DNA of 64,000 nucleotides. Source: Sediminispirochaeta sp. (GTDB lineage: Bacteria; Spirochaetota; Spirochaetia; B11-G9). The stretch covers positions 26,678-90,677 of the forward strand of contig JANTFL010000001.1 in NCBI GenBank assembly GCA_024763455.1, written 5' to 3'. How positions within the stretch are numbered: the stretch's first letter is position 1; each line of letters starts with the position of its first letter. The notes beneath the pieces are model-generated. The model was not told where the DNA came from, ran no database searches, and saw only the letters and a program-made list of their open reading frames with translations. This document shows positions 1,689 through 48,593 of the stretch, in pieces. The position numbers and the translations under genes are program-made.

Positions 1689-1700
1689 AGGAAGTGATGG

Positions 1701-2108: not shown

Positions 2109-2125
2109 TGGCATGAAACTTGCAT
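2109..2125 (+). promoter_or_regulatory. candidate sigma54 (RpoN) -24/-12 promoter
   Basis: TGGCAT-gaaac-TTGCAT has one mismatch to TGGCAC-N5-TTGCA, with GG and GC exactly 10 nt apart. It ends 20 nt before the ATG at 2146 of the sigma factor gene. Confidence 0.5.
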
Positions 2126-2145
2126 GTTATTATGCAGGAGCTGTT

Positions 2146-26278: not shown

Positions 26279-28081
26279 ATGAAAGTACCGAGAGAACGAA
26301 TTAGAAATTTCTGTATTATTGCGCATATAGACCACGGCAAATCGACCCTGGCAGACAGGTTTATCGAAAAAGCCATGATTATAGATAAACGTAAATTCCA
26401 GAATCAGCTTCTGGACAGTATGGATATCGAGCGGGAACGAGGTATTACTATTAAATCCCAGGCGGTAACAATTCCCTATATCGGGAAGGAGGGGGAGATG
26501 TACACTCTGAATCTTGTTGATACCCCTGGACATGTGGATTTCTCCTATGAGGTTTCAAGAGCAATTTCCTCCTGTGAAGGCGCTCTTCTTCTTATTGATG
26601 CAAGTCAAGGAGTGGAAGCACAGACCCTGGCAAATATGTATATGGCTCTTGAACACGATCTGGAAATAATCCCGGTAATTAACAAGATAGACCTGCCCAG
26701 TGCTGATATAGATTTTGTCAAGCACCAGATCGATCATGATCTTGGTCTCGATTCCGATACCGCAGTGCTTGTATCAGCAAAGACGGGGGAGGGGGTAGAT
26801 GACCTTCTTGAGGCTCTGGTTGAATATGTTCCAGCTCCCAGAGGTGATGAAAACATTCCTCTAAAGGCCCTTATCTTCGATTCTCACTACGATCCATACA
26901 GAGGGGTGATTATACACGTAAGAGTCTTCGAAGGCACCCTGAAAAGCGGTGATACCATAAAACTCTTCTTTTCAGAGAATAGCTATAAAGTTGAGGAAAC
27001 CGGTATTTTCAGAATAGATTTGGAAAAAAAGGATAGACTGACATCCGGCGAGGTAGGATACATTATTGCAGGTATCAAGACCATTTCCGACATCAGAATC
27101 GGAGATACGATAACTGTAGTGGATAACCCCTGCAGTGAACCTTTGGATGGATTCAAAGAGGTACAGCCTGTTGTTTTTTCGTCGATTTATCCCGTCGATT
27201 CCGAGGATTACGAGGAACTGCATACAGCAATAGACAGGCTGAAACTGAATGATGCTTCCTTGGTATATGAAAAGGATTCTTCAGCCGCCCTTGGCTTCGG
27301 TTTCAGGTGCGGGTTTCTCGGTCTGCTTCATCTGGAAGTTGTACAGGAGCGGTTGGAGCGGGAATTCGGCCTCTCCATAGTGTTTACTTCCCCTTCGGTT
27401 CAGTATCATCTGTTTTTGAAAAACGGGGAGGATCATTTTATAGATAACCCTCTTGAGTTCCCTGATCCGATGCAGATAGAGTATGTTGAGGAGCCTTATA
27501 TCAAAGCAACCCTTATTACCCCCTCCGAATTTGTCGGGGGTATTATAAAGCTGTGCCTTGAAAAGCGGGGGGTTCAGGAATCAATGCATTATCTCGATGA
27601 GAAACGGGTGGAGCTTGTCTATGATATGCCTCTTGCAGAAGTTATTTTTGATTTTTATGATAGACTTAAATCAATCAGTCGGGGATATGCATCCTTTGAC
27701 TACGAGATCGATGACTTCAGGAGAACAGATCTTGTCAGACTTGATATCATGGTTAACGGGCAGGTAGTGGATGCTCTCTCCCAACTTGTATTCAGGGAGA
27801 ACGCTGTTCCAAGAGCAAGAGTAGTCTGTAAGAAGCTCAGAGAAGAGATCCCCCGTCAACAATTCAAGATACCCATACAGGGTGCAATTGGAAGCACAAT
27901 CATTGCCAGGGAGACAATATCCGCTCTACGAAAGGATGTCACTGCTAAATGTTACGGTGGAGATATATCTCGGAAGAGAAAACTTCTCGAGAAACAGAAA
28001 GAGGGAAAGAAGCGGATGAAAATGGTGGGGAATGTCGAAGTACCCCAGTCAGCTTTTCTTTCTGTCCTCAAGAGTGATTGA
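26279..28081 (+). CDS. lepA: translation elongation factor 4 (LepA)
   Basis: [32 protein letters not shown] and the LepA-specific C-terminal domain are present. I moved the start to the ATG at 26279, giving ~600 aa; the track start at 26168 overlaps the regulator gene. Confidence 0.95.
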
Positions 28082-29707
28082 CAGTGATTTTGTAAGAATG
28101 CCCCTGAAATATTCAGCCGAGAGCAGTACTCTTTTTATGTAATCTGGTGAAGCTTCATCTTTTGGAGGGAAGTCGGGGAAGTGTTTAAACAGGTAGTCCA
28201 TGGAGGAAAGGAGTTTTTTGACAGCTTCCCTGTCGGAAACTTCTCCCGCCAAAAATCTGTAGAGACCTGAATGCAGTTCCTCGATTTTTTTAAGCTCCTC
28301 TTCAAGAAATGAGATGTTTTTTACTAATCCCGGTTCAGTAACACTCCGTTTCGCTGAAGCATCTTCCCCTGCTGCAGGAATACTGCCCTCCTCACCAATA
28401 GCTTCGTCAATTTCTTGAATTATTCTTCCAGCGGATCTAAGTCCCAAAGTACCCAAATCGTACAATCTTTTTTCTTTTCCAAAATAAGCATTCATTAGGA
28501 GTGCGTATGAATAAAGAATTGTGTTTGAAAGCCTCATTGCTCCTCTTTTATCCTCTGTTTTCCTATACGGACGTGTAAGGAAAATATCGATGTTTTCGAC
28601 CGGAATAAGGCGTGTTGTATCAAAAAGTATAGAGGACTGAAAAGGGGTCCCCCTGGCATGAGACTTTCCGAGAATATATGAAAAATCAAGCCCCGTGTGA
28701 ATAACCGGTCCGCTGCTCATCATAAGGGCTATATAGACAGCGGTTATCCCGACCGATCCAAGGGGAGGGAGCATTGCAAGGTCCTTGAATTGGCTTCTGA
28801 CCCGTGTTATCAGGGTATTGTCATTGAATACCGAAAGGAAGGGATAAAGTGGGCCATTGAAGTTTCTGACTATGGAGGGGTAACAGGTTAAGTCGAAGAA
28901 CAAGGGGATGGAACTTTTTGTAAGTCCGATAAAATCAAAAAGATTGTAAACTTGCGCATCAACAGCAACTATGTAATCAGGGGTAATACCACTCTTCAAA
29001 AGGGCTGAAACCGCTGTATCAACAGCAACTAGTGCGATTTCATGCTGGTGGCGTTTTATCTGCGGTATCGATTCTTCCAGGGACTCACCGGCTCCCGTGA
29101 CAAGAACAGGACGGGAGTGTTCTATTCCGGTAAAATTCCCATTAATTATCCTGTCTTGATGTTCTTCGGTTAACGAAGCCATATTTAAAAATATATTTCT
29201 GATCCAGAGCGGCGCCATGTGTATTTCAGTCATCCTGTTCTGCCAGAACTCTTTGACTGCTGCTTCCAGAACCCCGAGTATCCTTTGATACTCATCTTTG
29301 TTCAGAAGATATCCCCCGGTAAGGGTAATCATTGATACTCTTCTGAAATGGTGAATACCGGCTTGCCGGAGTATTTGTAGGGCTTCCTGGATGTCGTTTC
29401 CGATATAATGAAAGCGGCTGTCCCGGGGGACAGAGGTACCAGTTTTTTCATAAAGATTAAAAAGTTTTTGATCAGTTTCGATAGCCAGGACCAGGCAGTC
29501 ATCCGGTAGATTTTGCAGCAGGGGTTCAATACCGTAAAAAAGGAGCGGAGAGGGAATAAAAAGGACAGTTTTCGGCAGAATCTTTATATGCCGAACTTTC
29601 CTTTCAACGGATTCTACAGGTGTTAGTGTATTGTAAAGATGTCTTTTCCGGTAAAAAACAGAAAACCCTCTGCCTGTATCAACAAGAAGAGGGTTTTGAG
29701 GCTTCAT
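28049..29707 (-). CDS. Maf-like (motility accessory factor) DUF115/MptE-like domain protein, putative glycosyltransferase
   Basis: 552 aa. The core [46 protein letters not shown] matches the GAGPSL...D...PD..v..D pattern of DUF115/Maf. It is co-directional with, and 13 nt downstream of, the PpiD-like gene. Confidence 0.7.
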
Positions 29708-29720: not shown

Positions 29721-31223
29721 TTAGTTGGTTCTTAACACTTGCTGTGAGAAAACTGACAGGAAGTTATTCTTGAGTTTATCGGAACTCAGAAATTTCCTGT
29801 ATAACGACTCCTGTCTGAACTGATCAACAAGATATGCATAATATGCATCCAGATAGGCAAGTTCATCTGCACCAACGTTTCGTTCTTCAATGAGCTGTGC
29901 CACAATCACTGAATTGTCCAGAATCAAAGGCTCGGTTGTTTCATTTTTCTTTAATGAAAAGAGAGCTTTCAGGGCTCTTTCGTCGGTTGCAGCAGCGTTG
30001 AGTTCTTTGTCGTCATCCAAGGCTCTGATCTGCTTCATAAAATAGCTGTTACCATAGTTAATTGGAAAGTAGTCAGTCACATGAGAGGTAAGGTTCATTC
30101 CACTGCCTGCCGTATCGAATCCTGAAGTGGAAGCATTTTTTCTGAAATTTTCAGCTTTTGATACAAAGAAATCTTCGACTTTACCTTTTTCATTAGTAAG
30201 GAGATAATTTCTGATGTCAGCAATATCTTCTTCCGCAGCAAAGTCGGGATCGGTCCTTTCGTTATTTACCCGGTAAATACTGTAGCCGTAAGGTGTTTTG
30301 ATCAGGGAACTTAACTCTCCTGATTTAAGCGTGAAAACGGTATCAAGGTCTTTACTGTCAGAGAAATCCCCGGTAAGTGAGTGGTATCTGACCCAGCCCA
30401 TATCTCCGCCTTTATCAGCGTATATATCAGTTGACTGATTCTGGGCAATTTCTTCAAAGCGTGCAGGGTTTTCTTTAAGCTGTGTATAGAGAGTATCAGC
30501 TGTTTTTTTATCATCCTTAAGTGAAATGCGGCTTAGATTTACCTTTGCAAAAAGAGCTGAGTTATCCCTGCCGTAGGATATCACTTCCGAATCAGGATAT
30601 GCATCAAAGCTGAATGCCACGTATTTAAAACTCCGTTCAGGAGAAGACATTCCCTTTACAAAATCTTTTTCCTTTTCAGATGAGAGGGTACTGCTTACAT
30701 CACTTAAATACTGCTGCTGCGTAAGCTCTTCACGGTAGAGCTGCCGGGTTGCGTATTTCTCCGAATTAGGGGTGGAATTATAGATTTCAGGGCTGAATTT
30801 CCCGTTATCCATATATGGACCGTACTGGGTAAGAGCTTTGTCTATCCGGTGGTCGGAAATATACAGACCGCTCTCTTTTGCACTGTCAAGGATTGCCATA
30901 TGGAAGACTGTACTGTCAAAGGCACCCTTCCAGATCTGATACGTCTGGTACTGGTAGTTTGAACTGGTGGTATCTGTATTCTGATATTTTTGAACAAAGG
31001 AGTCCAACTGACGTGCGAAATAGCTATTTTGAGTGTATTTTATATCCTTACCGGCGTATTGACCGAAAGTCATATCCTGCCCGCCGCCTAATAGTCCTCT
31101 GAAAAAGGGCGCTCCTACAAAACTGACAACAACCAGTACAAGGATTGCAATACTGAAAACCCATAGAAACGGGTGTTTATGTTGTTTTTCTGCTACAATA
31201 TTTTCTTTGTTTTTTGAAGGCAT
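29721..31223 (-). CDS. membrane-anchored peptidyl-prolyl isomerase/chaperone (PpiD/SurA-like, parvulin domain)
   Basis: It has an N-terminal TM helix (FLWVFSIAILVLVVVSFVGAPFF), a parvulin-like segment (DKGGDMGWVRYHSL..LKSGELSSLIKTPYGYSIYRV) and long chaperone-like flanks. I moved the start to the ATG at 31223, which is preceded by GAGGA. Confidence 0.7.
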   Translation of the reverse strand: MPSKNKENIVAEKQHKHPFLWVFSIAILVLVVVSFVGAPFFRGLLGGGQDMTFGQYAGKDIKYTQNSYFARQLDSFVQKYQNTDTTSSNYQYQTYQIWKGAFDSTVFHMAILDSAKESGLYISDHRIDKALTQYGPYMDNGKFSPEIYNSTPNSEKYATRQLYREELTQQQYLSDVSSTLSSEKEKDFVKGMSSPERSFKYVAFSFDAYPDSEVISYGRDNSALFAKVNLSRISLKDDKKTADTLYTQLKENPARFEEIAQNQSTDIYADKGGDMGWVRYHSLTGDFSDSKDLDTVFTLKSGELSSLIKTPYGYSIYRVNNERTDPDFAAEEDIADIRNYLLTNEKGKVEDFFVSKAENFRKNASTSGFDTAGSGMNLTSHVTDYFPINYGNSYFMKQIRALDDDKELNAAATDERALKALFSLKKNETTEPLILDNSVIVAQLIEERNVGADELAYLDAYYAYLVDQFRQESLYRKFLSSDKLKNNFLSVFSQQVLRTN

Positions 31224-31258
31224 ATGTTCCTCATATTTCTCATAAAATGGCGTTCCAA

Positions 31259-31287
31259 ACCATACCACGTGCTTTTAGATGTGTCAA
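31259..31287 (-). promoter_or_regulatory. candidate sigma70 promoter of the PpiD-like/Maf-like operon
   Basis: On the minus strand: TTGACA (31287-31282), a 17 nt spacer and TATGGT (31264-31259). It gives a ~35 nt leader carrying GAGGA. Confidence 0.4.
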
Positions 31288-31302
31288 TTCTCTTAATAGT
31301 AA

Positions 31303-31331
31303 TTGTATTTTCTCACTATTGTTTGTATATT
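31303..31331 (+). promoter_or_regulatory. candidate promoter (leaderless geometry) of mcsA-mcsB-clpC
   Basis: TTGTAT (31303-31308), a 17 nt spacer and TATATT (31326-31331), then aaaaat (6 nt) to the ATG at 31338. No SD is present and the -35 is weak. Confidence 0.35.
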
Positions 31332-31337
31332 AAAAAT

Positions 31338-31853
31338 ATGTTATGCGATGTTTGCGGAAAAAGAGAAGCGGCGATACATATTCAGCAGATCATAGGAAAG
31401 AAAGTGATTGATCTGCACTTGTGCCGGCAGTGTGCCAGGGAGAAGAATGTCTCGGAAACAGAGGGGTCTGTAAACAATTCAATTATAAATTTGGTAAAGA
31501 ATCTCCTGGATGGAACTCGTTTGACACAGTTCATTGATCAAAAAACTACGTATTGCCCGACTTGTAATACAAAACTGCATGAAATCAGAGAAACCGGAAA
31601 GACGGGTTGCCCCGACTGTTACAGAGAGTTTAGAACAGTTATCCGTGAATCTCTGGGTGTGGGAAACACACCTCTTCTGCATAACGGCAACATCCCTGAA
31701 AAGCTGAAGAGCTATAAAACAATTCTGGTTGACAGAGAAAAGCTGAAAAAAGAGCTTGAAGAGGCAGTGTTTAAAGAGGATTACGAAACTGCCGTTGTAC
31801 TGCGGGATAAGCTGAAGGAACTTGAGATTGAGCTGGGAAGGGGTAATGAGTAG
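31338..31853 (+). CDS. mcsA: protein arginine kinase activator McsA-like (zinc-ribbon repeats + UVR motif)
   Basis: 171 aa from the ATG at 31338. It has CDVCGKREA..CRQCA and CPTCNT..CPDCY cysteine pairs and the UvrB/C motif AVFKEDYETAVVLRDKLKELE. It lies directly upstream of mcsB. Confidence 0.75.
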   Translation: MLCDVCGKREAAIHIQQIIGKKVIDLHLCRQCAREKNVSETEGSVNNSIINLVKNLLDGTRLTQFIDQKTTYCPTCNTKLHEIRETGKTGCPDCYREFRTVIRESLGVGNTPLLHNGNIPEKLKSYKTILVDREKLKKELEEAVFKEDYETAVVLRDKLKELEIELGRGNE

Positions 31854-32901
31854 TTTTTCAGGATTTGAAACTGCTCCTCTTTGGTGCAGGAAGGAAGGAG
31901 AAGCGCGTGATGTAGTCCTATCCAGCAGGGTAAGACTGTCGAGAAACCTGGCGGGATTTACTTTTCCTGAAAAATTGACCCTAAAGGATGAGGAAGAGGT
32001 AAAGAATATTGTCCTTTCAGCGGTAGAAACAAGCAACCAGTACAAGGATATGGAAGTTCTGTACATGAACGATGTTATTCCTGTTGAAAGAATGATGCTG
32101 TTCGAGAAAAGGCTTGTTTCCAGGGATTTTTCTGAAGGCAGGAATAAAGCGGTCGTTATACGGAGTGATAAGAGTCTTTCCTGCATGGTTAATGAAACCG
32201 ACCACCTTAAGATAGCTGCGTATACCGGTGGGCTTGATCTTGAAGAGGCATTTAATGAAGCCCGGGAGTTTGACGTAGCATTGGAAAAAAATCTGGATTA
32301 TGCAGTTTCTCTGGAGTTTGGATATCTCACCAGTCAGATAAAGAATGCCGGGACCGGTATGAAAGCTTCAGTTATGCTTCACCTGCCGTTTCTTGTAAGA
32401 ACAGGGCTGTTGGATAGAGCGATTAAATCCTCACTGACGGAGGAATTCTCAGTAAAAGGCTTTTTAAGTGATGAAGAAAACTCTCTGGGAGACCTGTATC
32501 AGGTTTCAAACGAAGTATCGATAGGAATAAGCGAAGAGGCATATTTGAAAAAACTGCAGACAGTGGCATCTTCACTCATGGGGTATGAACGACGGGCACG
32601 GGACCAGTTCTACAAGAGTAAAAGCATGGAGCTGGAAGATATATTTTACCGGGCTTATGGAATCCTTAAAAACTGCAGACTTCTGTCTTTGAAGGAAGCG
32701 GTACGGTATCTTATGGATTTTAGAATTGGAATAATAATGGGTTGGTCCGATGTCCCTTTGGAACGGATTGACTATCTGATAATTCTGGTGCAGAAAGCGC
32801 ATATCCAGTCTACTCTTGACTTTGATGAGGAATCAAACTCAAAAATTATTAATTATACCCGTTCAAAGCTTGTCAAAAGATATCTTGAGTTACTACAATA
32901 G
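31846..32901 (+). CDS. mcsB: protein arginine kinase McsB (ATP:guanido phosphotransferase family)
   Basis: VVLSSRVRLSRNLAGFTFP, NETDHLKI and the TSQIKNAGTGMKASVMLHLP phosphagen-kinase signatures are present. The start is the ATG at 31846. Confidence 0.85.
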   Translation: MSSFSGFETAPLWCRKEGEARDVVLSSRVRLSRNLAGFTFPEKLTLKDEEEVKNIVLSAVETSNQYKDMEVLYMNDVIPVERMMLFEKRLVSRDFSEGRNKAVVIRSDKSLSCMVNETDHLKIAAYTGGLDLEEAFNEAREFDVALEKNLDYAVSLEFGYLTSQIKNAGTGMKASVMLHLPFLVRTGLLDRAIKSSLTEEFSVKGFLSDEENSLGDLYQVSNEVSIGISEEAYLKKLQTVASSLMGYERRARDQFYKSKSMELEDIFYRAYGILKNCRLLSLKEAVRYLMDFRIGIIMGWSDVPLERIDYLIILVQKAHIQSTLDFDEESNSKIINYTRSKLVKRYLELLQ

Positions 32902-32916
32902 GAGTAGGGGGATCAT

Positions 32917-35409
32917 ATGTATAAGGGGCTAACACAACGGGCTAAATTAATAGTAACCGTATACTCACAGGAAGAGGCAAAGCGGTTCAGATCAGACCAG
33001 CTTTTACCGGAACATATACTCCTGGCAATAATAAAAGAGGGCGAAGGGACAGGTTTAAAGGTTTTGAAATCCTTAAAAATAAATCCTGTTGAACTTCAGC
33101 TGGAGATTGAGAAGGGAATTCCCAGAAAACACTCAGGATATATCCTGGGAGACGTATCACTATCCAGAAGAGGGACGCGAATTATTGAAGACTCTGCCGA
33201 AGAAGCAAAAGCTCTTGGCCATGAGTATATTGGTACAGAACATTTTATTCTTGCAGCTATTAAAGAGCAGGGGAGTATTCTTCAGCGTTTCCTCGGAAAA
33301 AACGGAGTTTCATACAGTGATTTTCGGAAGGCAGTCATTGCCATGCGGGGCGCCGGTTCAAATTCGGCAAGTAGAAATACCCGGTTTCAGGCACAAAAGA
33401 AGAATCAGCCGGTGAGCAGCAAGAAGGGAACACCTACCCTGAACGACTTCTCCAGGGATCTTACAGAGTATGCCCGCAAAGGAGCCCTTGACCCTGTCAT
33501 AGGTCGGGAACAGGAGATTAAAAGGGTTATCCAGATTCTTGCCCGGCGCACAAAAAACAATCCGGTTCTTGTAGGTGAGCCGGGAGTAGGGAAGACGGCA
33601 ATAGTCGAAGGACTGGCCCAGCGGATCGTGGACGGGACGGCACCCGATTTACTTCTTGGTAAACGGGTTTTGACCCTGGATATTGCTTCTCTCATTGCGG
33701 GAACAAAATACAGGGGAGAGTTTGAGGAACGTCTAAAGCGTGTAATGAAAGAGATCCGTAATGATGGAAACGTGATTCTTTTTATTGATGAACTGCACAC
33801 AATAATAGGAGCCGGCGGTGCTGAGGGGGCAATTGATGCGTCTAATATGTTAAAACCTGCCCTTTCCAGAGGTGAGATTCAGTGCATCGGTGCAACTACA
33901 TTAAATGAATACAGGAAATATATTGAAAAAGATTCAGCTTTGGAGAGAAGATTTCAGAGTATTTTTGTGGATGAACCTACGGTGGAGGATACAATAAAAA
34001 TACTTAACGGAATTAAAAAGCAATATGAGAATCATCATAATGTAGAATATGAAGATAAGGCAGTTACCGCAGCTGCAATGCTCTCGCACAGGTATATCTC
34101 AGACAGGTTCCTTCCTGACAAAGCAATTGATCTGCTGGATGAAGCAGGTGCAGTAAAAAGAATTAACAATACTGTACGGCCGGGCAGTATACGGAAGATG
34201 GAGGAAGAGATTGAAGAACTCACTTCAAAAAAGATTGAACTGGTCAATAATCAGGACTACGAGAGGGCAGCAGCTGTCAGAGATCAGGTTCGCCAGCTTA
34301 AGCTCGAAATGGATAAAAAACTCAATGACTGGAATAGTTCCATGAAGGTGGAAAAGGTAACAGTCTATGAAACCGATATAGATGAGATAATATCCAGTAT
34401 CACCGGGATACCAGCAGCCAGGATTGCTGAGAGTGAATCGGAAAAGCTCCTTCAGATTGAGAGTGAACTGCATAAAACAGTAATAGGACAGAATGAAGCA
34501 ATAACCGCTATTGCATCAAGTATAAGACGGTCAAGAACAGGACTTTCTTCTCCTGGAAGACCTTTGGGGTCCTTTATTTTCCTGGGACCCACAGGGGTGG
34601 GAAAGACTCTCCTTGCAAAAACCCTTGCACAGTATCTTTTTGGAAAAGAAGATGCACTTGTAAGGATAGATATGTCCGATTTTATGGAAAAACACAACAT
34701 TAGCCGGCTGGTTGGAGCACCCCCCGGGTATGTAGGATATGAAGAGGGAGGACTTCTCACCGAGAAAATTCGGAGACGACCTTACAGTGTTATCCTTCTT
34801 GATGAGATTGAAAAAGCACATCCTGACGTTTTTAATCTTCTGCTTCAGCTTCTTGAGGAAGGGGAGCTTCAGGATAATCTGGGACATAAGGTTTCTTTTA
34901 AGAATACTGTTCTTATTATGACATCCAACGCAGGAGCCAGAGAAATCTCACAGGAAAATTCTCTGGGGTTTAAATCCAACGATGGAATACTGAGTTACTC
35001 AGAGATACGGGCTTCTGCTTTAAATGAACTCCGGCTTCAATTCCGACCTGAGTTTATAAACAGAGTGGACGAGATTGTAGTCTTCAACAGCCTCACAAGA
35101 GAAGAGATAAGAAATATTGTGGATATTCTCCTTGATGAGATTAAGTTACGGCTGCTTGAGATGAATATAATCCTGGAATTGAAGAAAAGTGCCAGAGAGT
35201 ATCTGGTTGATAACGGTTATGATCCGAAGTTCGGCGCACGGCCATTACGAAGAGTCCTTCAAAAAGAGATAGAAGACCCCCTTTCCGTTCAAATACTTGA
35301 GGGGAAATGTCCTGCCGGTAGCAGGGTTACCGCAGGAGTACGTAAAGGGCATCTCTCTTTTGCGATAGATAAACCAAAACTTATAGAAGCTAAAACACCG
35401 GTTGTATAA
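32917..35409 (+). CDS. clpC: ATP-dependent Clp protease ATP-binding subunit ClpC
   Basis: 830 aa. It has a Clp_N repeat, two AAA+ modules (GEPGVGKT, GPTGVGKT), a UVR-like linker (QDYERAAAVRDQVRQLK), and follows mcsAB. Confidence 0.9.
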   Translation: MYKGLTQRAKLIVTVYSQEEAKRFRSDQLLPEHILLAIIKEGEGTGLKVLKSLKINPVELQLEIEKGIPRKHSGYILGDVSLSRRGTRIIEDSAEEAKALGHEYIGTEHFILAAIKEQGSILQRFLGKNGVSYSDFRKAVIAMRGAGSNSASRNTRFQAQKKNQPVSSKKGTPTLNDFSRDLTEYARKGALDPVIGREQEIKRVIQILARRTKNNPVLVGEPGVGKTAIVEGLAQRIVDGTAPDLLLGKRVLTLDIASLIAGTKYRGEFEERLKRVMKEIRNDGNVILFIDELHTIIGAGGAEGAIDASNMLKPALSRGEIQCIGATTLNEYRKYIEKDSALERRFQSIFVDEPTVEDTIKILNGIKKQYENHHNVEYEDKAVTAAAMLSHRYISDRFLPDKAIDLLDEAGAVKRINNTVRPGSIRKMEEEIEELTSKKIELVNNQDYERAAAVRDQVRQLKLEMDKKLNDWNSSMKVEKVTVYETDIDEIISSITGIPAARIAESESEKLLQIESELHKTVIGQNEAITAIASSIRRSRTGLSSPGRPLGSFIFLGPTGVGKTLLAKTLAQYLFGKEDALVRIDMSDFMEKHNISRLVGAPPGYVGYEEGGLLTEKIRRRPYSVILLDEIEKAHPDVFNLLLQLLEEGELQDNLGHKVSFKNTVLIMTSNAGAREISQENSLGFKSNDGILSYSEIRASALNELRLQFRPEFINRVDEIVVFNSLTREEIRNIVDILLDEIKLRLLEMNIILELKKSAREYLVDNGYDPKFGARPLRRVLQKEIEDPLSVQILEGKCPAGSRVTAGVRKGHLSFAIDKPKLIEAKTPVV

Positions 35410-41233: not shown

Positions 41234-42067
41234 ATGAAACTTTACGAAAAAAGAGACAGGTCACTACCTTCAGGCTGGTATCCTGATACAGAAGAAGGGG
41301 TGCGGAAAATTTTAATAAACTGGGAGGAGCGCTACGGGAAAAGAGAAGAGGGCTGTATCTCGGGAATAGTCCCCCATGCTGGATGGTTTTTTTCAGGGTA
41401 TATTGCTTTCTCTGTAATGAGTAACCTCTCTCCAGATGCGGATACGATTGTGATTGCAGGCGGTCATTTGCCTGGCGGAGTATCACCAATGCTCTTCAAC
41501 TATAAGGTAATGGAAACACCTATCGGTCCTTTGGAGACAGATTTAACCTTCCTTGAGGAGCTTTCAGGGCGAATTACATTTTACGAAGGTACAGAAGCAG
41601 ACAACACTGTTGAAATCCAGCTGCCTATTGTCAAGTATCTTTTCCCTGGGAGTAAGGTCGTAGCTTTAAGGGTTGGTGCAGGCAGCGATGCAATTGAACT
41701 AGGCGGGGAAATTGCAGCCGTTTCAAGAAAGCTGGGTAAAAAGACTGTTGTTGTTGGATCAACTGATCTCACCCATTACGGACCTTCATACGGATTTACC
41801 CCCCATGGGACCGGTAATTCAGCCCTCCGCTGGGTTAAAGAAGTAAATGACAAGAAAATAGTAAATGCTTTTTTATCAATGGAAGAAGAAAAAGTTCTGG
41901 AGTACGGGAACAGGAACAAGGCGGCATGCTCATCCGGCGCTGCTGCGAGTGCTATAGCATTTGCCCGTCACTTTGGCAGGTCACAAGGGGAGCTTATTTC
42001 ATACATGACCAGTAATGATGTCTATCCATCAGACTCCTTTGTCGGTTATGCCGGAGTAGTGTACTAA
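41234..42067 (+). CDS. MEMO1-family protein (AmmeMemoRadiSam system protein B-like)
   Basis: 277 aa. GWYPD, IVPHAGWFFSG, AGGHLPG, VEIQLP, STDLTHYG, AACSSG and the terminal FVGYAGVVY match the Memo family layout. Confidence 0.8.
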   Translation: MKLYEKRDRSLPSGWYPDTEEGVRKILINWEERYGKREEGCISGIVPHAGWFFSGYIAFSVMSNLSPDADTIVIAGGHLPGGVSPMLFNYKVMETPIGPLETDLTFLEELSGRITFYEGTEADNTVEIQLPIVKYLFPGSKVVALRVGAGSDAIELGGEIAAVSRKLGKKTVVVGSTDLTHYGPSYGFTPHGTGNSALRWVKEVNDKKIVNAFLSMEEEKVLEYGNRNKAACSSGAAASAIAFARHFGRSQGELISYMTSNDVYPSDSFVGYAGVVY

Positions 42068-43746
42068 GATGCAATTACCTTCGCTACTGTTTCAATTGTC
42101 CAGTCAAGAGTTTTTCTAAGAATCTCCATCCCTCCTGTATCAGGGGAACACACTCTCCTGATTGCAGCTGCTGCGGGGAAAAGAGTGATGCAAACCTCTT
42201 TTTGTCTTGAGGTAAGAGAGTGCATATATCCGGATAAAGACTCTGCCGGTACTGGAAGAGATTTAAGATCCTGGTAGTACGAGTAAAGAAAATGATTCCA
42301 TGAGAGATCAGCTGGCCCTGCGGAAAATATACTTGATATTCCGTATGATTCGGGTATTTTTTGATATGCAGGGATTTCTATCATTTCACCTTCCCCTTCA
42401 GGAATGATTACTTCGGATTTGAGACTGCTGATCAGTTTTTCAAGTCTTTTTTTATAACTAATCATTGGTTTCGTCACATACCGTGAGCTTCTCGTATCAG
42501 TTACATGGTTAGTCTCATCGTTGTGAAAAATAAAATCAATAAAAAAATCTTCAAGAGGTTGTGTTCTGTGTGTCAGAGCGCTGAAATATGGATATAAATA
42601 GGTACCTCTGGCATAACTCTTGCCGTAGGGATAAGAGAAGTCAACCCCGAAAAGCAAAATTTTTTTTGCCCCCAGAGAGTAGGCAAGGGATACTGCGGCA
42701 TGGCTGACATTTCCGCCTGAAGTATCAATAAAAGGGAATTCCCTCCATCTTTTTTTTACATACAATGAGAACGGGTGACCGCTGGTAAAAAAAAGAACAT
42801 TGTCTGTAAGCCGGGTTATGAGCTGAGGCGATGCAAGATCAAGAACAAGAGGGATATCATTGGGGATTCCAGTCATAAAGTGATGAAACGTAATATGCTG
42901 GCAGTCGATAGATAATATCAGGTCAGGTTTAATCCCATTTTGTATAAGAGCGGGATAAGCGGTGTCTGTTGTAATCAGAAATCCATCTTTTGAATGCTCC
43001 TTTAATTGTGGCAGCTGCTTTTCTAACGACGGACCGGCTCCGGCTATGAGTGCTTTATTAACAGGAGAAATAACAGTAGTAGTTTTTTCTGCCGCCTTCA
43101 GGTTAAGAAGTGTGTTCACAAACCACCTTTTGCCGAAGTAAGATTGTACTGAAAAATCCTCTGAAAGCGGTGTTATTACATCATTGATTGTTTTTGTAAC
43201 ACTGGAAAAAAATTCGTTTTCCATTTCAACTCTTGCTCTGAGTTTAAGAATATCAAGGTTTCCTGATATGGCAGGGATATAGTTTTCAAGAATATGACTG
43301 GATATATCCTCTGGTGAGGGATCAATAAGTATGCGTACTCTTTTATCAAGAAAAAGTGAGGTGAGATTAAAATGAGTGAGTATTTTCTTGAAAAAGCCAT
43401 AATCCTTGTCAATTACAAGAATCTCAGATATTTGTTTATCTTCAGTAAAGGGTAGTATATGATAACCGGCACCAAAACCGAGGATAATTATGTAACCACT
43501 TGCTTTAAACGTAGAATAAAACCTCTTCCCTTCTTTCTCCGGATCAAAGGTTGAATGAAGAGGGACTTCTCTATCGTTTTTTTTCAAAAACGGAACCCGC
43601 ATTCCTGTTCTGCTTTCTTTTATCAGGTACTGATCAGATTCATCAACATAGCTTATCTTGGAGGCAAGACTGGAATTCGTCGCCGAAAGTGCAAGAAGAT
43701 TGGATTCAAGAAACGACTGATTACTCTGTTTCTGCATTATGTTCAA
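42064..43746 (-). CDS. Maf-like DUF115/MptE-like domain protein, putative (flagellin) glycosyltransferase
   Basis: 560 aa. The core ALIAGAGPSLEKQLPQLKEH..ITTDTAYPALIQNGIKPDLILSIDCQ is present, with a Maf-type N-terminus (..PLHSTFDPEKEGKRF..ILGFGAGYH). It is the last gene of the 48395-42064 operon. Confidence 0.75.
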   Translation of the reverse strand: MNIMQKQSNQSFLESNLLALSATNSSLASKISYVDESDQYLIKESRTGMRVPFLKKNDREVPLHSTFDPEKEGKRFYSTFKASGYIIILGFGAGYHILPFTEDKQISEILVIDKDYGFFKKILTHFNLTSLFLDKRVRILIDPSPEDISSHILENYIPAISGNLDILKLRARVEMENEFFSSVTKTINDVITPLSEDFSVQSYFGKRWFVNTLLNLKAAEKTTTVISPVNKALIAGAGPSLEKQLPQLKEHSKDGFLITTDTAYPALIQNGIKPDLILSIDCQHITFHHFMTGIPNDIPLVLDLASPQLITRLTDNVLFFTSGHPFSLYVKKRWREFPFIDTSGGNVSHAAVSLAYSLGAKKILLFGVDFSYPYGKSYARGTYLYPYFSALTHRTQPLEDFFIDFIFHNDETNHVTDTRSSRYVTKPMISYKKRLEKLISSLKSEVIIPEGEGEMIEIPAYQKIPESYGISSIFSAGPADLSWNHFLYSYYQDLKSLPVPAESLSGYMHSLTSRQKEVCITLFPAAAAIRRVCSPDTGGMEILRKTLDWTIETVAKVIAS

Positions 43747-45253
43747 AAGTTCCCCTTACTATTTCTTCGGCTGTTGTAATTATCGGATAAAGATCATCTA
43801 CAGTGCAGCTTTCGCCTGAAGAAAGTTTTTTTACACAGATAATAATTTCCTGGAGTGAAAATAGATAGAATAAACCGGTTAAAGATTCATCTCTGGTAAG
43901 AAAGCGGACTAAGTCCTGAAAACCAGTTATCTCAGGGATCTCCCTCTTTACGATTTGAAGTTTTTTTATGATTGCATGAAGGGAAGAATCAATGAGATCA
44001 AAAGATTTCGGTTTTGCTACTGAAGAAAAAAAGAATTCAGTGGAATCGGCACGTATATTCCCGGTTACTAATTGAATGATTTCACTACCCTTTACTGAGT
44101 GGAAAAAATTTAATGTGGAAGACGATGGATTAACCCTGTAAATATTGTTACTGATACGGACATTATTAAACCAGTTAGCATAGGTTTGGTAAGCTCTATT
44201 GCTCCCCTGATGCTGTGAATCAATCTTGTGTGAATACAATATGTCAAGATATGGGTGAACCCTGGATTCTCGGCATTTAAAATAATTATCAAAAGTATGG
44301 GGGCTTACATGGCTGTGGACATCATTGAATGCAAGATCCAGTCCAGCTACAAATACTGAGGGACTGCCAAGTTTTAACGAGAGTACTAGAGCTGTAGCTG
44401 CAACAGTGCCGGTTTCAAAGAGTTTTACTGAGGGGATCGAAATAAATGAAGACACCCATTTTTCCAATTCAGAGTTCTGGTTAATCAGGAGAACAGGTCC
44501 ATCAACTTTGAGGTGGGTTGCAGTCAAAGGCATGGCAAATGGAATTCCCCGAATAAAATCCTGCCTGAAATGAAATCGATTCCAGAAACCGGGATCAGTA
44601 TTTACAATTAAATCAGGATAAATCGAATAGTATTCAAGTGCATGAAGCGATGAAGGAAGTGCTGTTATAAAAAAAAGTTCCCGATGCTCTTTTATCAGCG
44701 GTAACATCTTGGAAAGAGACGGTCCTGCGGCAGTAATAAGAACAGGCTTTGAAATTTTAAATGAATCCGGGTTTATAAACGTATTGATGTATTTTAGATT
44801 TAGGTATAAATTTCGAATCCATTTTCTACTGAAGTTAACTGTTGTAACTACAGAGCCGTTTCTTTCTTCCATGAATGAAAAAATAGTATCAGCTACCAAT
44901 TGATGGATCTCTGGGAAAGCTTTTGAACACGGTTTCCAAACAATCAACCGGAGAACCGGAATCATGAAATCGGGTATTGAAGAGCCCAAAAAACTTTTCA
45001 ATGAAGTATTTGAACCGACGTACCATGAAAGTTTTTTATCCTTGGCTTTGTCATAAAAAATCTTGTTGTAATATACAGAAACAACTAAGGAACCAGGATA
45101 CCTATCCATCAGATACTTTTTCAGATATTCCCCTCCCGGCCCGGTCAGGAGAAATAGATAACATCCCTTTTTAATATTTAAAGAATCCACATACCGTGAG
45201 GCTGCACGCTCAGGCGCATAAGGTGAATGAATGGTAATACCGTTGTATTTCAA
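43721..45253 (-). CDS. Maf-like DUF115/MptE-like domain protein (second tandem paralogue)
   Basis: 510 aa. The core VLITAAGPSLSKMLPLIKEH..ALPSSLHALEYYSIYPDLIVNTDPG is present. Its 3' end overlaps the next Maf-like gene by 26 nt. Confidence 0.7.
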   Translation of the reverse strand: MKYNGITIHSPYAPERAASRYVDSLNIKKGCYLFLLTGPGGEYLKKYLMDRYPGSLVVSVYYNKIFYDKAKDKKLSWYVGSNTSLKSFLGSSIPDFMIPVLRLIVWKPCSKAFPEIHQLVADTIFSFMEERNGSVVTTVNFSRKWIRNLYLNLKYINTFINPDSFKISKPVLITAAGPSLSKMLPLIKEHRELFFITALPSSLHALEYYSIYPDLIVNTDPGFWNRFHFRQDFIRGIPFAMPLTATHLKVDGPVLLINQNSELEKWVSSFISIPSVKLFETGTVAATALVLSLKLGSPSVFVAGLDLAFNDVHSHVSPHTFDNYFKCRESRVHPYLDILYSHKIDSQHQGSNRAYQTYANWFNNVRISNNIYRVNPSSSTLNFFHSVKGSEIIQLVTGNIRADSTEFFFSSVAKPKSFDLIDSSLHAIIKKLQIVKREIPEITGFQDLVRFLTRDESLTGLFYLFSLQEIIICVKKLSSGESCTVDDLYPIITTAEEIVRGTFEHNAETE

Positions 45254-45265: not shown

Positions 45266-46186
45266 CTAAAGGATATCCAGCTTGGAAAGAAGCAAATCCA
45301 CATCTCTGCCCTGTTCAGGATACAAGATATAGGAATGTTTTATAACCGGAAGATCAGTCTGAATATTAAAATAATTTTTTAAGGTTAATTCAATTTGAGT
45401 TGTTAGAATCTGCGGTTTTTTCATAGTATGTGATGAAAAGAGCAGCAAGGATGTATAAAGATCAATCTGTAATAATCTGCCGGATATATTAACCATAGAG
45501 TAGATTGTGTCAAAAATATCCTGGGATATCTGTTTATCTTCCTGGCTTTCAGATCCGGACTCAGAAATAATGGAAATAAGCTCTTCAAAGTTGAGTTTAA
45601 TAAGGAAAATAACAGAATCCCTATGTTTTGAAAGGTACCGTGATACGAAAGGAATTATTGATGAATCAGCGGACACTGCAGTTTTTTTACTGCTTTCAAT
45701 TTTGGATAGCTTTTCAAGAATAAGTCTTAGAGTTTTTATTGCTTCATCAACAGCTCGTGGTTTTTGAATCATCGGTGAATTGATACCCAGAAATGCAGTA
45801 TCTTGATGCTTCATAAAAGTGATGTTCTTCAGTCCTGTGAATTCGCGTATTGAAAGCAGCGGTTTAAAATTCTGCAGATCCTCAGGTGAAGTAAGTATGT
45901 TAAACCCTTCTGTTTTGAAGATGGAACTTAAAAATTTATTGTTAAATCTAACTCTTCGGCTGGAGGTTATATCAATACCGGTTTGGGCTGCCGGTAACCA
46001 AAGATCTTCTTTGGGGTTATAAGAAAGAAACAAAGCTTTTTTAAGACCAACAAAATCACAAAAAAGGTTTAATGACTTTAAAGGATATGATTCATCAGTG
46101 GATAAATCTCTTTCACTACGAACAAAATCTTCGTAGCTTTTTTTTTTAGAATCTTTTGTATCTAAAACAGTGTTTAGTAAACCCAT
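45266..46186 (-). CDS. hypothetical protein (306 aa), operon partner of the acidic repeat protein and Maf paralogues
   Basis: Long ORF lying 4 nt after the upstream stop and 12 nt before the next start. I recognise no diagnostic motif. A possible small-ligand-sensor-like two-domain layout is only a guess. Confidence 0.5.
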   Translation of the reverse strand: MGLLNTVLDTKDSKKKSYEDFVRSERDLSTDESYPLKSLNLFCDFVGLKKALFLSYNPKEDLWLPAAQTGIDITSSRRVRFNNKFLSSIFKTEGFNILTSPEDLQNFKPLLSIREFTGLKNITFMKHQDTAFLGINSPMIQKPRAVDEAIKTLRLILEKLSKIESSKKTAVSADSSIIPFVSRYLSKHRDSVIFLIKLNFEELISIISESGSESQEDKQISQDIFDTIYSMVNISGRLLQIDLYTSLLLFSSHTMKKPQILTTQIELTLKNYFNIQTDLPVIKHSYILYPEQGRDVDLLLSKLDIL

Positions 46187-46190: not shown

Positions 46191-48395
46191 CTAATGAAGC
46201 CCCAACTCATCAAAAAGTTTTTTATAAACTGAAAAGTACTCGGAGTTTGCAAACTCTTCTATCTTCTCCTCTGGGAGGGACTCGAGCAGCTGATCCATAT
46301 ACGATAGAACTGAAATAACCTCAGATTGCAGATGAGATGGAATCGGTTCTTCTCCAGGAGCATTGTCTGCTATTTCAGTATCCTCTGTTATTTCTTCAGG
46401 AATTTCGATTTCCTCAGGTGCCTCAACAGAATCAGACAATAAATCATCATCCTGGAGTTCCGGTATCTCGATATCAATAGCAGTACTTTCCATAGGTTCA
46501 GAAGGTTCTTTAGGGGGAAGAATATCAAATTCCTCATCAAGATCATTAAGCTCCGGCAGGTCTTCTACAAACTGTTCTTCACTTACTTCTGGAACTTCTT
46601 CAACACGTGCTGCCTCTTCCGGAATCTCAAGATCGGTAAGGTCGGAATCCAGAGAAAGTTCTTCTTCCTCCGGCATCTCCAGGTCGGTAAGGTCAGAATC
46701 CAGAGAAAGTTCTTCTTCCTCCGGCATCTCCAGGTCGGTAAGGTCGGAATCGAGAGAAAGTTCTTCTTCTGGGATCTCAAGATCAGTAAGGTCGGAATCA
46801 AGAGAAAGTTCTTCTTCCGGGATTTCAAGATTCGGCAGATCTGAATCCAGGGATAACTCAGCCGGTTCTTCCTCTTCCTCGATATCAATAAGTTCCGGAG
46901 TTTCGTCGGCTGCCTCATCAAGTACTTCCAGATCGATCAGATCTTCATCTTCAGCGTCCAAATTTAGTTCCGAAACGTCATCAAGCTCAAGGTTTTCGAG
47001 TTCCAGGTCAGGTTCGTCTGTAAAATCTACATCTTCGGAAACTACAGCTTCCGGTATCTCCTCTGCTTCATCGAGTTCGAGTTCTTCAACTTCCGGAATT
47101 TCTTCTTCCATGGAAAGTTCATCCAGTATATCTGGCTGATCAATTAAATCCAGATCTTCTGCTTTGGTTAGTTCCTCGTCCATGGAAAGTTCTTCAGAAT
47201 CTTCAAGAGATTCAGTTTCTACAGCCAGTTCCTCTGTTATATCAGCCGTATTAAGGATATTATCGAGTTCATCCCCTGTTAGAGCAATAGTTTCGTCATC
47301 ATCCTCATTAAAGAAATCACTCGTCTCCTCAGCTGTTTCATCCGTTTGAGAAGCGGTAACCGGAACTGTTTCAGTTGTTTTTAGAGTAGATAACTCCTCT
47401 TTCATTGTAAGAATTTCATTCTTTATGGTAAGGAGTTCGTTTTCAATCTTTTTTAATACTTCAGAAGCCGATTCAACGGATACTTCAGATGCCGTATAAG
47501 AGGGGATGTCACTTTCAACGATATCCTCCTCCTCACCAGTTGTAAGATCTTCAATGATACTTTCAGTTTCATCGAAGTCAACAGAGAAGTCATCAGGGGC
47601 TCCATCACCGGCTTCTTCATCTTCGGAGATTTCAAGGTCAGGGAGTTCTTCAATAGCAAGTTCTTCAGCTCCAGAGATCTCTTCGGCGTTGCCGGGAAGA
47701 GCAGCCTCTTCTTCTCCTTCTTCGTTAAGGAGGATATCATCATCTTCAAGAAAGCTGTCAACATCAAGGTCTTCAAAATCTTCATCGAGGCCGGAACTGA
47801 GTAGATCATCTTCATCAAGATCAAGATCAAGATCATCAACTGAATCTGTCTCAGGGTTAACGGAACTTATACTCTCAGTTTCACGTTCCGGTTCTGTGAC
47901 AGCCTCGATATCTTCTATATCCTCAAGCTCAAGGTCTTCCAGTTCACTGTCCAGGTCATCAAGATCAGCCAATTCTACATCTTCAAGTTCCAGATCATCC
48001 TCTTCCATAGTCTCCATTTCCGGTTCATCTCCTATGCCAGCAGTTTCAGTCTCTTTGGTATTTTCAGGAGACTCATCAAAAGTCTCTGAAGATTCTATAT
48101 CAAGAGGCATGTCAAAAGATTCGTCTTCTTCAAGATCGAAGTCAAGATCATCCAGTTCGTCAATCTCGTCATCGATTTCTTCTGTAACAAGTTCCTTTTC
48201 AAGTTCTCCCAGAAGATTTTCTTCTTCCTCTGTAATTGCACTCTCAGTAGTATCCTGAATATCATGAAGAGAGAAATCTTCTCCTGTATTTAAAGTGTCT
48301 TCGGTTTCAATCTCTTCCGGACCTGCTTTTACCCATACTCCGTACTGTTCAAGCTCTTTTTCTTTTTTTATGTCATCATTCCCGTTTGACACCAT
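46191..48395 (-). CDS. hyper-acidic repeat protein (~734 aa), function unknown
   Basis: Long ORF. 39 of the first 100 residues are D/E by hand count and the composition is similar throughout. There is no TM helix or signal peptide. Three non-acidic islands are present: N-terminal KELEQYGVWVKAGPEE, a central coiled-coil-like VLKKIENELLTIKNEILTMKEELSTLK, and C-terminal VISVLSYMDQLLESLPEEKIEEFANSEYFSVYKKLFDELGL. AGGAG lies 6 nt upstream of the second ATG (48395); the first ATG at 48401 abuts the SD. Confidence 0.6.
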   Translation of the reverse strand: MVSNGNDDIKKEKELEQYGVWVKAGPEEIETEDTLNTGEDFSLHDIQDTTESAITEEEENLLGELEKELVTEEIDDEIDELDDLDFDLEEDESFDMPLDIESSETFDESPENTKETETAGIGDEPEMETMEEDDLELEDVELADLDDLDSELEDLELEDIEDIEAVTEPERETESISSVNPETDSVDDLDLDLDEDDLLSSGLDEDFEDLDVDSFLEDDDILLNEEGEEEAALPGNAEEISGAEELAIEELPDLEISEDEEAGDGAPDDFSVDFDETESIIEDLTTGEEEDIVESDIPSYTASEVSVESASEVLKKIENELLTIKNEILTMKEELSTLKTTETVPVTASQTDETAEETSDFFNEDDDETIALTGDELDNILNTADITEELAVETESLEDSEELSMDEELTKAEDLDLIDQPDILDELSMEEEIPEVEELELDEAEEIPEAVVSEDVDFTDEPDLELENLELDDVSELNLDAEDEDLIDLEVLDEAADETPELIDIEEEEEPAELSLDSDLPNLEIPEEELSLDSDLTDLEIPEEELSLDSDLTDLEMPEEEELSLDSDLTDLEMPEEEELSLDSDLTDLEIPEEAARVEEVPEVSEEQFVEDLPELNDLDEEFDILPPKEPSEPMESTAIDIEIPELQDDDLLSDSVEAPEEIEIPEEITEDTEIADNAPGEEPIPSHLQSEVISVLSYMDQLLESLPEEKIEEFANSEYFSVYKKLFDELGLH
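46614..46862 (-). repeat. in-frame tandem repeat, 5 units of 48 or 51 nt (ELSLDSDLTDLE[I/M]PEE[E])
   Basis: Five consecutive near-identical DNA units are visible, e.g. ccggcatctccaggtcggtaaggtc[a/g]gaatccagagaaagttcttcttcct occurs twice. They encode 17+16+17+17+16 aa. Confidence 0.9.
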
Positions 48396-48593
48396 TTCCA
48401 TCTCCTGATATTTAGTTCACTTTTACAAATATCGGCAAATAAATTTAAAGTATGACTTATTTATCAGTTTCAATACTATTAATTACAAGTTATCAGAATT
48501 ATAGAGAAATAACAATCAAAATCTAAAAAATATTGAGCCCTTTTCTCTTTCCCGGCTCAAGATTAAGACCTGAATTTCCGTAAAAAAGAACAT

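Follow-up and report, generated by a model that had tools for sequence, protein, structure and literature searches.

The window analysed here, that is, the whole 64-kb stretch of DNA, carries three Maf-like genes at two places on its minus strand: D1 (28049..29707, 552 aa), which lies behind a gene for a PpiD/SurA-like chaperone, and D3 (43721..45253, 510 aa) with its paralogue D2 (42064..43737, 557 aa), which lie behind two further genes. All three open reading frames were confirmed at these positions; the mechanical ORF start of D2 is TTG 43746, and ATG 43737, as called in L164, is more probably the true one. Each product matches the Pfam family PF01973 (MptE-like/DUF115) far above the cut-off of 34.6 bits (D1, 105 bits, E 4.6e-30; D2, 119 bits, E 2.5e-34; D3, 80 bits, E 3e-22), and the pairwise BLASTP matches among them are significant (core identity 23-30%, E 2e-22 to 6e-15). 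The DUF115/Maf-type paralogy proposed in the initial annotation is thus true. The core motif quoted there was found in D1 (GAGESL...PDYIVAVD) and D2 (GAGPSL...PDLILSID), but D3 departs from it in having Ala in place of the first Gly (AAGPSL...PDLIVNTD).

The proteins share the three-domain fold of the solved Maf structure (PDB 5MU5), which is the top PDB match of all three family profiles, above archaeal MptE. D2 is the most conserved and the most Maf-like of the paralogues: it scores 22.5 bits against Maf_flag10_N (PF20157), just below the cut-off of 23.5, this domain is present in many of its orthologues, and some of these are named 'motility associated factor glycosyltransferase family protein' by NCBI. 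A direct match to PF20157 is absent in D1 and D3; the N-terminal regions of both align with that of D2 (hhalign, probability 99.9). The three families are homologous over the N-terminal and central domains, with the D3-D2 alignment (hhalign, probability 99.9, E 4.6e-33) spanning both and the D1-D2 alignment running into the C-terminal region. Inspection of D1 revealed neither a signal peptide nor a membrane segment. In the family alignments, the positions equivalent to E324 and D415 of the Magnetospirillum magneticum Maf, which are functionally important in that protein (10.1101/2020.06.03.131540), are conserved in D1 (D/E250 and D341) and invariant in both D2 (D281 and D369) and D3 (D220 and D306). 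Because DUF115 motifs also occur in pyrophosphokinases (MptE), the conserved acidic residues alone are no proof of transferase chemistry.

For comparison, we used a related set of 80 metagenome loci, which are not phylogenetically independent and, as far as their records bear names, belong to the class Spirochaetia; the scan of the genome collection for synteny used a 9-sequence alignment as the query. D1, D2 and D3 form three separate monophyletic orthogroups that coexist in the same genomes. Therefore, the triplication is old, and the separately conserved orthogroups occur throughout the related spirochaete DNA that was retrieved.

D3 and D2 are the last two genes of a four-gene operon in the order acidic protein, GAF/degenerate-GGDEF protein, D3 and D2. 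The stop of D3 overlaps the start of D2 (ATG 43737) by 17 nt, D3 immediately precedes D2 in 66 of 66 loci, and the four-gene arrangement is kept in the 80 related loci wherever the contig extends far enough. The second gene (45266..46186, minus strand) encodes a fast-evolving protein of 306 aa with 'QIDLYT' in place of GGDEF, whose GAF-like and degenerate GGDEF-like domains were resolved by structure prediction only. The first (46191..48401, minus strand) encodes an acidic, low-complexity and probably disordered protein of 736 aa. Its conserved parts are an N-terminal motif, LE(Q/K)YGVWVKxGPE, and a domain of ~55 aa at the C-terminal end (..VLSYMDQLLESLPEEKIxEFAxSExFxVYKKLFEELGL). The C-terminal motif was found in 51 of 51 ORFs at the upstream-upstream position. 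The domain itself occurs in 1,671 cluster representatives and is at the extreme C-terminus in all of the 150 that were listed. Sequence searches of Pfam, NCBIfam and the PDB gave no match for either partner protein. A divergently transcribed DivIC gene adjoins the operon.

A sigma-28 (FliA)-type promoter candidate, TCAT-N15-GCCGATAT, was recognized by direct reading of the sequence at 48429..48455 on the minus strand, ~28-35 nt 5' of the start codon of the acidic protein. An equivalent element of the form TAAA/TTAA/TCAA-N15/16-xCCGATAA is present at the same place, exactly, in 25 of 36 related loci, and each of the 7 loci inspected among the other 11 has one mismatch in the -10 element. Strict scoring finds the element in 19 of the 36 loci versus ~1.4 expected, in a sample of loci that are not phylogenetically independent. 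Within the window, the -35 element is weak (TCAT), GCCGATA alone occurs at chance frequency, and the strict pattern TAAA-N14-16-GCCGATA has no match. The mapped P_flaB2 promoter of T. denticola has a -35 TTAA and a -10 CCGATAA (PMC9481697), and the element at the operon is of the same form. This promoter is the only direct tie to the flagellar regulon that we found for the paralogues, and it was overlooked in the earlier reading of this DNA, as were the two conserved genes that precede D3 in the operon. Elsewhere in the window, a sigma factor gene (2113-2982) was considered as FliA and rejected, since it is RpoS/RpoD-like.

D1 is transcribed separately. The gene directly upstream of it (29721..31268, minus strand, with ATG 31223 as the probable true start) encodes a chaperone with SurA_N (SurA_N_2/3) and parvulin (Rotamase) domains in Pfam and a hydrophobic N-terminal stretch, FLWVFSIAILVLVVVSFVGAPFF, which we read as a membrane anchor. 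Only 13 nt, including AAAGG, separate its stop from the start of D1, and no terminator-like site is present in this gap. The grouping of D1 with the chaperone gene, apart from D2 and D3, thus holds as proposed in the initial annotation, and the paralogues fall into two separate transcription units. The same annotation regarded the pairing as unusual; on the contrary, it is normal within the lineage, as 78 of the 80 related spirochaete loci have the PpiD-like gene immediately before D1 and in the same orientation, with a median gap of ~18 nt. Therefore, the pairing is a trait of these spirochaetes rather than of a single genome. The whole HtrA-LepA-D1-PpiD region is syntenic in related loci. 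D1 is surrounded by housekeeping genes and shows no flagellar regulatory signal. Upstream of the unit, a consensus scan alone gave a sigma-70-like promoter match, TTGACA-17-TATGGT with TG (31259..31287, minus strand, 10/12), and none of 70 related loci has a CCGATA sigma-28 element ahead of the PpiD-like gene. A sigma-28-like site at 29776-29803, in the 3' end of the PpiD-like gene and upstream of D1, was rejected as a chance match that spans Ser-Asp-Lys codons; upstream of D1, CCGATA occurs in 6 of 79 related loci only, at scattered positions, and is absent from the 78%-identical relative L002.

The statement in the initial annotation that no donor-sugar or flagellin gene lies nearby is borne out. 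Pfam scans of the ~60 ORFs of the whole window revealed no genes of the Flagellin_N/C, FlaA, NeuB, DegT, Polysacc_synt_2 or CTP_transf_3 types, and no flagellin or Pse/Leg/Neu-type genes were found in the 64 kb or in the 6-10 kb past each end, as covered by the short flanks of near-identical contigs. The single CTP_transf_like match (11380-11952) is flanked by Obg and an HD-domain gene, and by this context we take it to be NadD. The window does contain the flagellar rod genes flgF and flgG with a rod-binding gene (28-2018), and cheX (14352-14816). The related spirochaete loci retrieved normally have no Pse island beside them. A flagellar association of the paralogues may be read not from adjacency to flagellin or Pse genes but from the sigma-28-type promoter, which is present at the D3-D2 operon and absent at the D1 operon.

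FlaA, which is exported via the Sec pathway, is an unlikely substrate. The cryo-EM papers considered here describe glycans on FlaB only (PMC13439194, PMC13518957). The FlaB proteins of Treponema and Leptospira carry 4-7 O-linked glycans on conserved Ser/Thr sites, the glycan of T. denticola FlaB being a nonulosonic-acid derivative (PMC13439194, PMC13518957). These O-glycans are required for filament assembly in T. denticola, and in Leptospira they account for most of the contact between core and sheath, which determines the curvature of the flagellum (PMC13439194, PMC13518957). The initial annotation had suggested distinct substrates for the paralogues, with several FlaB and FlaA proteins as examples. 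Different jobs are indeed plausible, given three ancient orthogroups and different promoters, but the FlaA part of the suggestion is unlikely; by analogy with Maf-1 and Maf-2 of Shewanella (10.1101/2023.12.03.569772), a split by FlaB site or isoform fits better.

Because their neighbourhoods are fixed in the related spirochaete DNA retrieved and two of them lie behind a sigma-28 promoter, the paralogues are leading candidates for flagellin glycosylation. We infer that the three most likely act as FlaB O-glycosyltransferases and split sites or isoforms among themselves. They would be ancient paralogous DUF115, GT-A/GT42-like protein O-glycosyltransferases, most likely cytoplasmic, which may use a nucleotide-activated sugar of the nonulosonic-acid type supplied by genes elsewhere in the genome and would modify several Ser/Thr sites on the FlaB core flagellins before flagellar export. 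D3 and D2 would be translationally coupled and co-transcribed with the two partner genes from the sigma-28 late-flagellar promoter, the acidic and GAF/degenerate-GGDEF proteins being candidate specificity or regulatory factors analogous to GlfM, and D1 would be expressed apart, together with the housekeeping PpiD-like chaperone. The fold, the family, the conserved catalytic acids, the three orthogroups, the operon structures and the promoter motif come from the sequences themselves, whereas FlaB as substrate, the donor sugar, the division of labour and the roles of the partners are inferred. Several observations speak against the model: flagellin and Pse/Leg/Neu genes are absent from the window and its flanks, D1 has no flagellar regulatory signal, D3 is so divergent that it may not be catalytic, and the -35 of the promoter in the window is weak. 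Taken as a whole, this model of three Maf-type enzymes, two under sigma-28 with partners and one separate, appears to us probable, with moderate confidence.

The fixed neighbourhood of D1 can also be read differently. Its substrate or role might be non-flagellar and tied to envelope protein biogenesis, with a functional coupling to PpiD, which would leave D2 and D3 as the only flagellin enzymes; D1 might, for example, modify a Sec-bound protein or coordinate sheath folding with glycosylation of the core. The PpiD-like gene has stayed upstream of D1 in nearly all of the loci despite D1 identities that drop to 27% among them, D1 forms its own orthogroup, and its operon has no sigma-28 element; moreover, with FlaB glycans at core-sheath contacts (PMC13518957), it is conceivable that a folding factor of the periplasm is involved in such coordination. 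However, D1 matches D2 in its three-domain Maf architecture and has no export signal by inspection, and the HtrA-LepA-D1-PpiD synteny implies that the adjacency may be a frozen housekeeping neighbourhood rather than a sign of shared function. Chaperones of the PpiD type are general factors associated with Sec. We consider a non-flagellar D1 unlikely.

A more elaborate version of the three-enzyme model can be envisaged. The three Mafs might constitute a dedicated machine in which each serves a subset of the conserved FlaB Ser/Thr sites, whose glycans hold the sheath to the filament core. The sigma-28-controlled pair D3-D2 might be targeted or regulated by two lineage-specific proteins, the acidic, probably disordered protein as a scaffold with a C-terminal docking domain and the GAF/pseudo-GGDEF protein as a ligand sensor, and the co-expression of D1 and PpiD might be deliberate, matching core glycosylation to the folding of periplasmic sheath proteins. 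We put this forward as a doubtful extension only.

It is also improbable, in our view, that D3 is a non-catalytic pseudo-enzyme in an obligate complex with D2, serving in acceptor recognition or as a scaffold and leaving two active transferases. D3 is the fastest-evolving of the paralogues, with a mean within-family identity of 29% versus 53% for D2, it is tied to D2 by the overlap in the window and by its invariant upstream position, and the first Gly of GAGxS and the DTA motif are replaced (AAGPS and LPSS). Nevertheless, the D3 family keeps D220, D306, the GP in the nucleotide loop and a His/Arg cluster without exception, which argues for a preserved active site, and the M. magneticum Maf also lacks the DTA aspartate (CGTA). 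That the three proteins are not glycosyltransferases but MptE-like pyrophosphokinases or, as the divergent DivIC gene beside the operon could suggest, SteA-like cell-division factors is very improbable. At 510-560 aa, they carry additional domains on both sides of the core instead of the single domain of ~216-241 aa that marks MptE, and they do not combine a score above the curated 150-bit cut-off for SteA with a fold like that of SteA.

Apart from Kurniyati et al. 2017 on flagellin glycosylation in T. denticola, which may already name the enzymes, the spirochaete literature that we covered names no transferase for flagellin. The cryo-EM papers on the essential FlaB glycans name no transferases, and D1, D2 and D3 are candidates for them (PMC13439194, PMC13518957). 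As the state without Pse neighbours is normal in related loci, a search for a glycosylation island beside a transferase would miss these genes. Our analysis provides testable candidates, namely three Maf-like orthogroups, two partner proteins and a predicted sigma-28 promoter. Should genetically tractable spirochaetes such as T. denticola have orthologues, knockout combined with site-resolved glycoproteomics would be possible there.

Among known systems, the Maf of M. magneticum AMB-1 (PDB 5MU5) is the closest solved relative of the three proteins. The archaeal 6-hydroxymethylpterin pyrophosphokinase MptE (8SD5), the second-best match, has the DUF115 core for nucleotide binding in common with them, down to the GxGPS loop and the acidic motifs, but 5MU5 ranks above it in every search. 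All three also match the model of the Campylobacter PseD-type Maf (NF050051, FlagModPseD) through the DUF115 core, with weak similarity in the region around it; however, with 27 (D1), 70.5 (D2) and 33.2 bits (D3) versus a cut-off of 670, they are not PseD orthologues. The chaperone encoded upstream of D1 resembles Escherichia coli PpiD in its hydrophobic N-terminal anchor and its SurA_N-like and parvulin domains, and PRK10788 is its top NCBIfam match. In contrast, its score of 54.5 bits versus a cut-off of 493 misses the equivalog level, and the orthologue in L001 has a spirochaete-specific third domain (PF27392, TP_0929_3rd). We know of no other lineage in which a PpiD-like gene is fixed beside a Maf-like gene.

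The presence of several Maf paralogues in one organism recalls Shewanella oneidensis, in which flagellin O-sialylation is carried out by a bipartite Maf-1 system and a tripartite Maf-2/GlfM system (10.1101/2023.12.03.569772). There, the Mafs target different serines of the same flagellins, and one of them needs a small specificity factor encoded adjacent to it (10.1101/2023.12.03.569772). The two cases differ in several respects. No GlfM-like four-helix protein of ~89 aa is encoded beside D1, D2 or D3, where the partners are instead a GAF/degenerate-GGDEF protein and an acidic protein that is 600-1000 aa long, and no TPR domain was detected here; furthermore, the genes of Shewanella are part of a flagellar/Pse island, whereas D1, D2 and D3 lie outside such an island. 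Maf-1, Maf-2 and GlfM of Shewanella are the closest model for how the three paralogues and their operon partners may work.

On the best-supported reading, D1, D2 and D3, the three minus-strand Maf-like paralogues, are probably cytoplasmic Maf-type O-glycosyltransferases that would glycosylate FlaB, dividing the work by site or isoform; D3, D2 and their two partner genes would be expressed alongside the late flagellar genes, and D1 constitutively together with its PpiD-like neighbour. As the initial annotation had proposed, all three exist as open reading frames with a match to PF01973 (MptE-like/DUF115): D1 at 28049-29707 (552 aa; E 4.6e-30), D2 at 42064-43746 (560 aa; E 2.5e-34) and D3 at 43721-45253 (510 aa; E 3e-22). 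The core motif that it quoted is also present, although D3 has AAGPSL where GAGPSL was expected. With 23-30% pairwise identity over the core, these are distant paralogues. Profile comparison aligned residues 27-491 of the D1 family with 55-510 of the D2 family (probability 99.9, E 1e-31), and D3 with the D2 family across the N-terminal and central domains (E 4.6e-33); therefore, the likeness of all three exceeds the DUF115 core. In a neighbour-joining tree of 55 sequences, D1, D2 and D3 form three monophyletic groups, with mean identities of 36%, 53% and 29% inside the groups and 18-19% across them. D2 is the most conserved of the three; the Maf N-terminal Pfam domain occurs in many D2 orthologues, and some orthologues are already named Maf-family glycosyltransferases by NCBI. 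Because all three co-occur on single related contigs (L002/L084; L145), the triplication is older than the radiation of the sampled lineages.

D3 and D2 belong to one tight minus-strand operon, in which an acidic-protein gene (46191-48401; 736 aa, low-complexity), a gene for a 306-aa protein (45266-46186), D3 and D2 follow one another in the window, separated by 4 nt and 12 nt and, at the last junction, overlapping by 17 nt, the D2 start most likely being the ATG at 43737, inside the end of D3. Across two complete genomes and 80 metagenomic loci, every informative case (66/66) has D3 directly before D2, and the two partner genes invariably precede D3 in related loci, the acidic-protein gene always first. 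Memo is convergent downstream of D2 in 49 of 66 loci, and DivIC is divergent upstream of the operon. Two short stretches are conserved in the uncharacterised acidic-protein family: the N-terminal motif LE(Q/K)YGVWVKxGPE, and a C-terminal domain of ~55 aa whose conservation is strong (51/51 ORFs); Asp and Glu make up 27-45% of the homologues. No Pfam model matches the C-terminal domain, whose family comprises 1,671 cluster representatives; in all of the best 150 of these it stands at the extreme C-terminus. The 306-aa protein evolves very fast, with no family detectable by sequence and only 14 homologues found; its predicted structure (pLDDT 78) comprises a GAF-like domain followed by a degenerate GGDEF-like domain with QIDLYT replacing GGDEF. 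A second pseudo-GGDEF protein is encoded near the operon at 40105-41154 (-), a membrane protein with a weakly GGDEF-like, degenerate C-terminus (Pfam E 0.053; TIGR00254 E 6e-4). This gene and a Memo/AmmeMemoRadiSam-B family gene at 41234-42067 (+) are neighbours conserved downstream of D2 in the majority of related loci. An ABC-2 transporter (ATPase, permease, ABC_transp_aux/DUF7088) and a DUF4340 gene occupy 36344-40104 (+); several related genomes are without this block, and there a metallo-beta-lactamase-fold gene adjoins the pseudo-GGDEF membrane gene.

A candidate sigma-28 element, TCAT-N15-GCCGATAT, lies ~30 nt before the acidic-protein start codon in the window and, taken alone, is at chance level. 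At the equivalent place related loci carry TAAA/TTAA/TCAA-N15/16-xCCGATAA, and of the 36 loci whose upstream sequence was usable, 25 have an exact CCGATA there (background, 0.15 per 500 nt). Seven of the 11 remaining loci were checked, the other four being close relatives of these, and all seven have, at the same position as the exact elements, a version with a single -10 mismatch (GTCGATAT, TCCGACAA, GCCGAAAA, TTTCGATAA). Strict 10-of-12 scoring retained 19/36 loci versus ~1.4 expected. The element has the same form as the experimentally mapped sigma-28 promoter of Treponema denticola flaB2 (-35 TTAA, -10 CCGATAA; PMC9481697). As controls, CCGATA was found upstream of the PpiD-like gene in 0/70 loci and upstream of D1 in just 6/79, at scattered positions. 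Given the conserved element and these negative controls, the D3-D2 operon, and not the D1 unit, seems to be part of the late flagellar regulon. A match within the 3' end of the PpiD-like gene, TATA-N16-TTCCGATAA at 29776-29803 (-), ~70 nt upstream of D1, was rejected as a sigma-28 promoter and attributed to chance because it is unconserved in related loci and sits on Ser-Asp-Lys codons.

D1 starts 13 nt past the stop of the PpiD/SurA-like gene (29721-31268 (-); 515 aa), with AAAGG inside the spacer and no terminator-like site between the two genes in the window, where a sigma-70-like promoter match for the unit lies at 31287-31259. The PpiD-like protein has SurA_N and parvulin domains and a hydrophobic N-terminal stretch, read from its sequence as a putative membrane anchor. 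The pairing had initially been regarded as unusual. Instead, the PpiD-like gene adjoins the D1 orthologue upstream on the same strand in 78 of 80 species-representative genomes (named Treponema, Spirochaetaceae, Oceanispirochaeta, Sediminispirochaeta and others; median gap ~18 nt), and the D1/PpiD-like/lepA layout recurs, at 34% identity, in a complete genome of 3.86 Mb, which makes the pairing a fixed lineage trait. lepA is convergent on the D1 3' end in 63/67 loci of sufficient length, usually with htrA next. In the window, lepA (+) and D1 (-) share 33 nt at their 3' ends (28049-28081), and similar small overlaps occur in many related loci. Divergent from the PpiD-like gene, an operon at 31224-35409 (+) encodes McsA-like (UVR motif), McsB protein-arginine-kinase-like and ClpC proteins; many related genomes share the synteny of this block, and of the metallo-beta-lactamase-fold gene after it, with the D1 and D2 loci. 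The pairing and the negative promoter controls would suit a non-flagellar, envelope-linked role for D1, which we consider unlikely beside its extensive alignment with the D2 family.

In Magnetospirillum magneticum Maf, E324 and D415 are reported to be essential (bioRxiv 10.1101/2020.06.03.131540); E324 aligns with the acidic residue of a PD-x5-D/E motif and D415 with the Asp of G(L/V)D(F/L), and each of these positions is conserved in all three family alignments (D1, D2 and D3). The altered motif of D3 and its place beside D2 would accommodate D3 as a non-catalytic partner of D2, a doubtful proposal next to the conservation of both residues. That the three are pyrophosphokinases or SteA-like division factors is highly improbable. 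Archaeal pterin pyrophosphokinase MptE was the runner-up for every family profile in sequence searches, behind the Magnetospirillum Maf structure 5MU5 as the top solved-structure match (E 3.5e-10, 6e-12 and 4.5e-7).

Pfam scans of essentially every ORF found no flagellin, FlaA or Pse/Leg/Neu-type enzyme in the window, nor for 10 kb past its left end and ~6 kb past its right end in near-identical contigs, in agreement with the initial annotation that neither a sugar-nucleotide pathway nor a flagellin gene is nearby. Flagellar and chemotaxis genes inside the window include flgF, flgG, a rod-binding gene and cheX; the first three are followed, within 28-2982 (+), by a group-2 sigma factor, whose identification as FliA was rejected, the top scores going to RpoS/RpoD models. 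The same 64 kb holds two paralogues from the uncharacterised family DUF5312 (5189-6892 (+) and 52619-54367 (+)). A gene at 60074-64000 (+) that runs past the window end encodes a very large product, 1,383 aa long in the near-identical contig L168, in which FlgD_ig and Big domains are repeated; it also has CHU_C-like segments and ends in an OmpA domain.

For the proposed Maf-type enzymes, the analysis demonstrates fold, family, conservation of active-site residues, orthogroups, operon structure and promoter motif, whereas FlaB as substrate, the donor and what the partners do are inferred. In T. denticola, four or five Ser/Thr sites of FlaB1 and FlaB3 bear a nonulosonic-acid derivative, and filament assembly requires flagellin glycosylation (PMC13439194); in Leptospira, up to seven FlaB sites are O-glycosylated and dominate core-sheath contacts (PMC13518957). 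Neither report names a transferase. The question of which enzymes glycosylate spirochaete flagellin is reduced here to a short list of candidates for knockout. Two Maf paralogues of Shewanella act on different serines, and one depends on an adjacently encoded partner, GlfM (10.1101/2023.12.03.569772). None of the D1, D2 and D3 proteins is an orthologue of PseD, whose NCBIfam model they match weakly (27-70 bits versus a cut-off of 670). We found no description in the reachable literature of the spirochaete arrangement, in which three orthogroups and a PpiD pairing are fixed, a glycosylation island is absent and a sigma-28 operon includes two uncharacterised partners; the kind of protein around which it is built, Maf, is already known.
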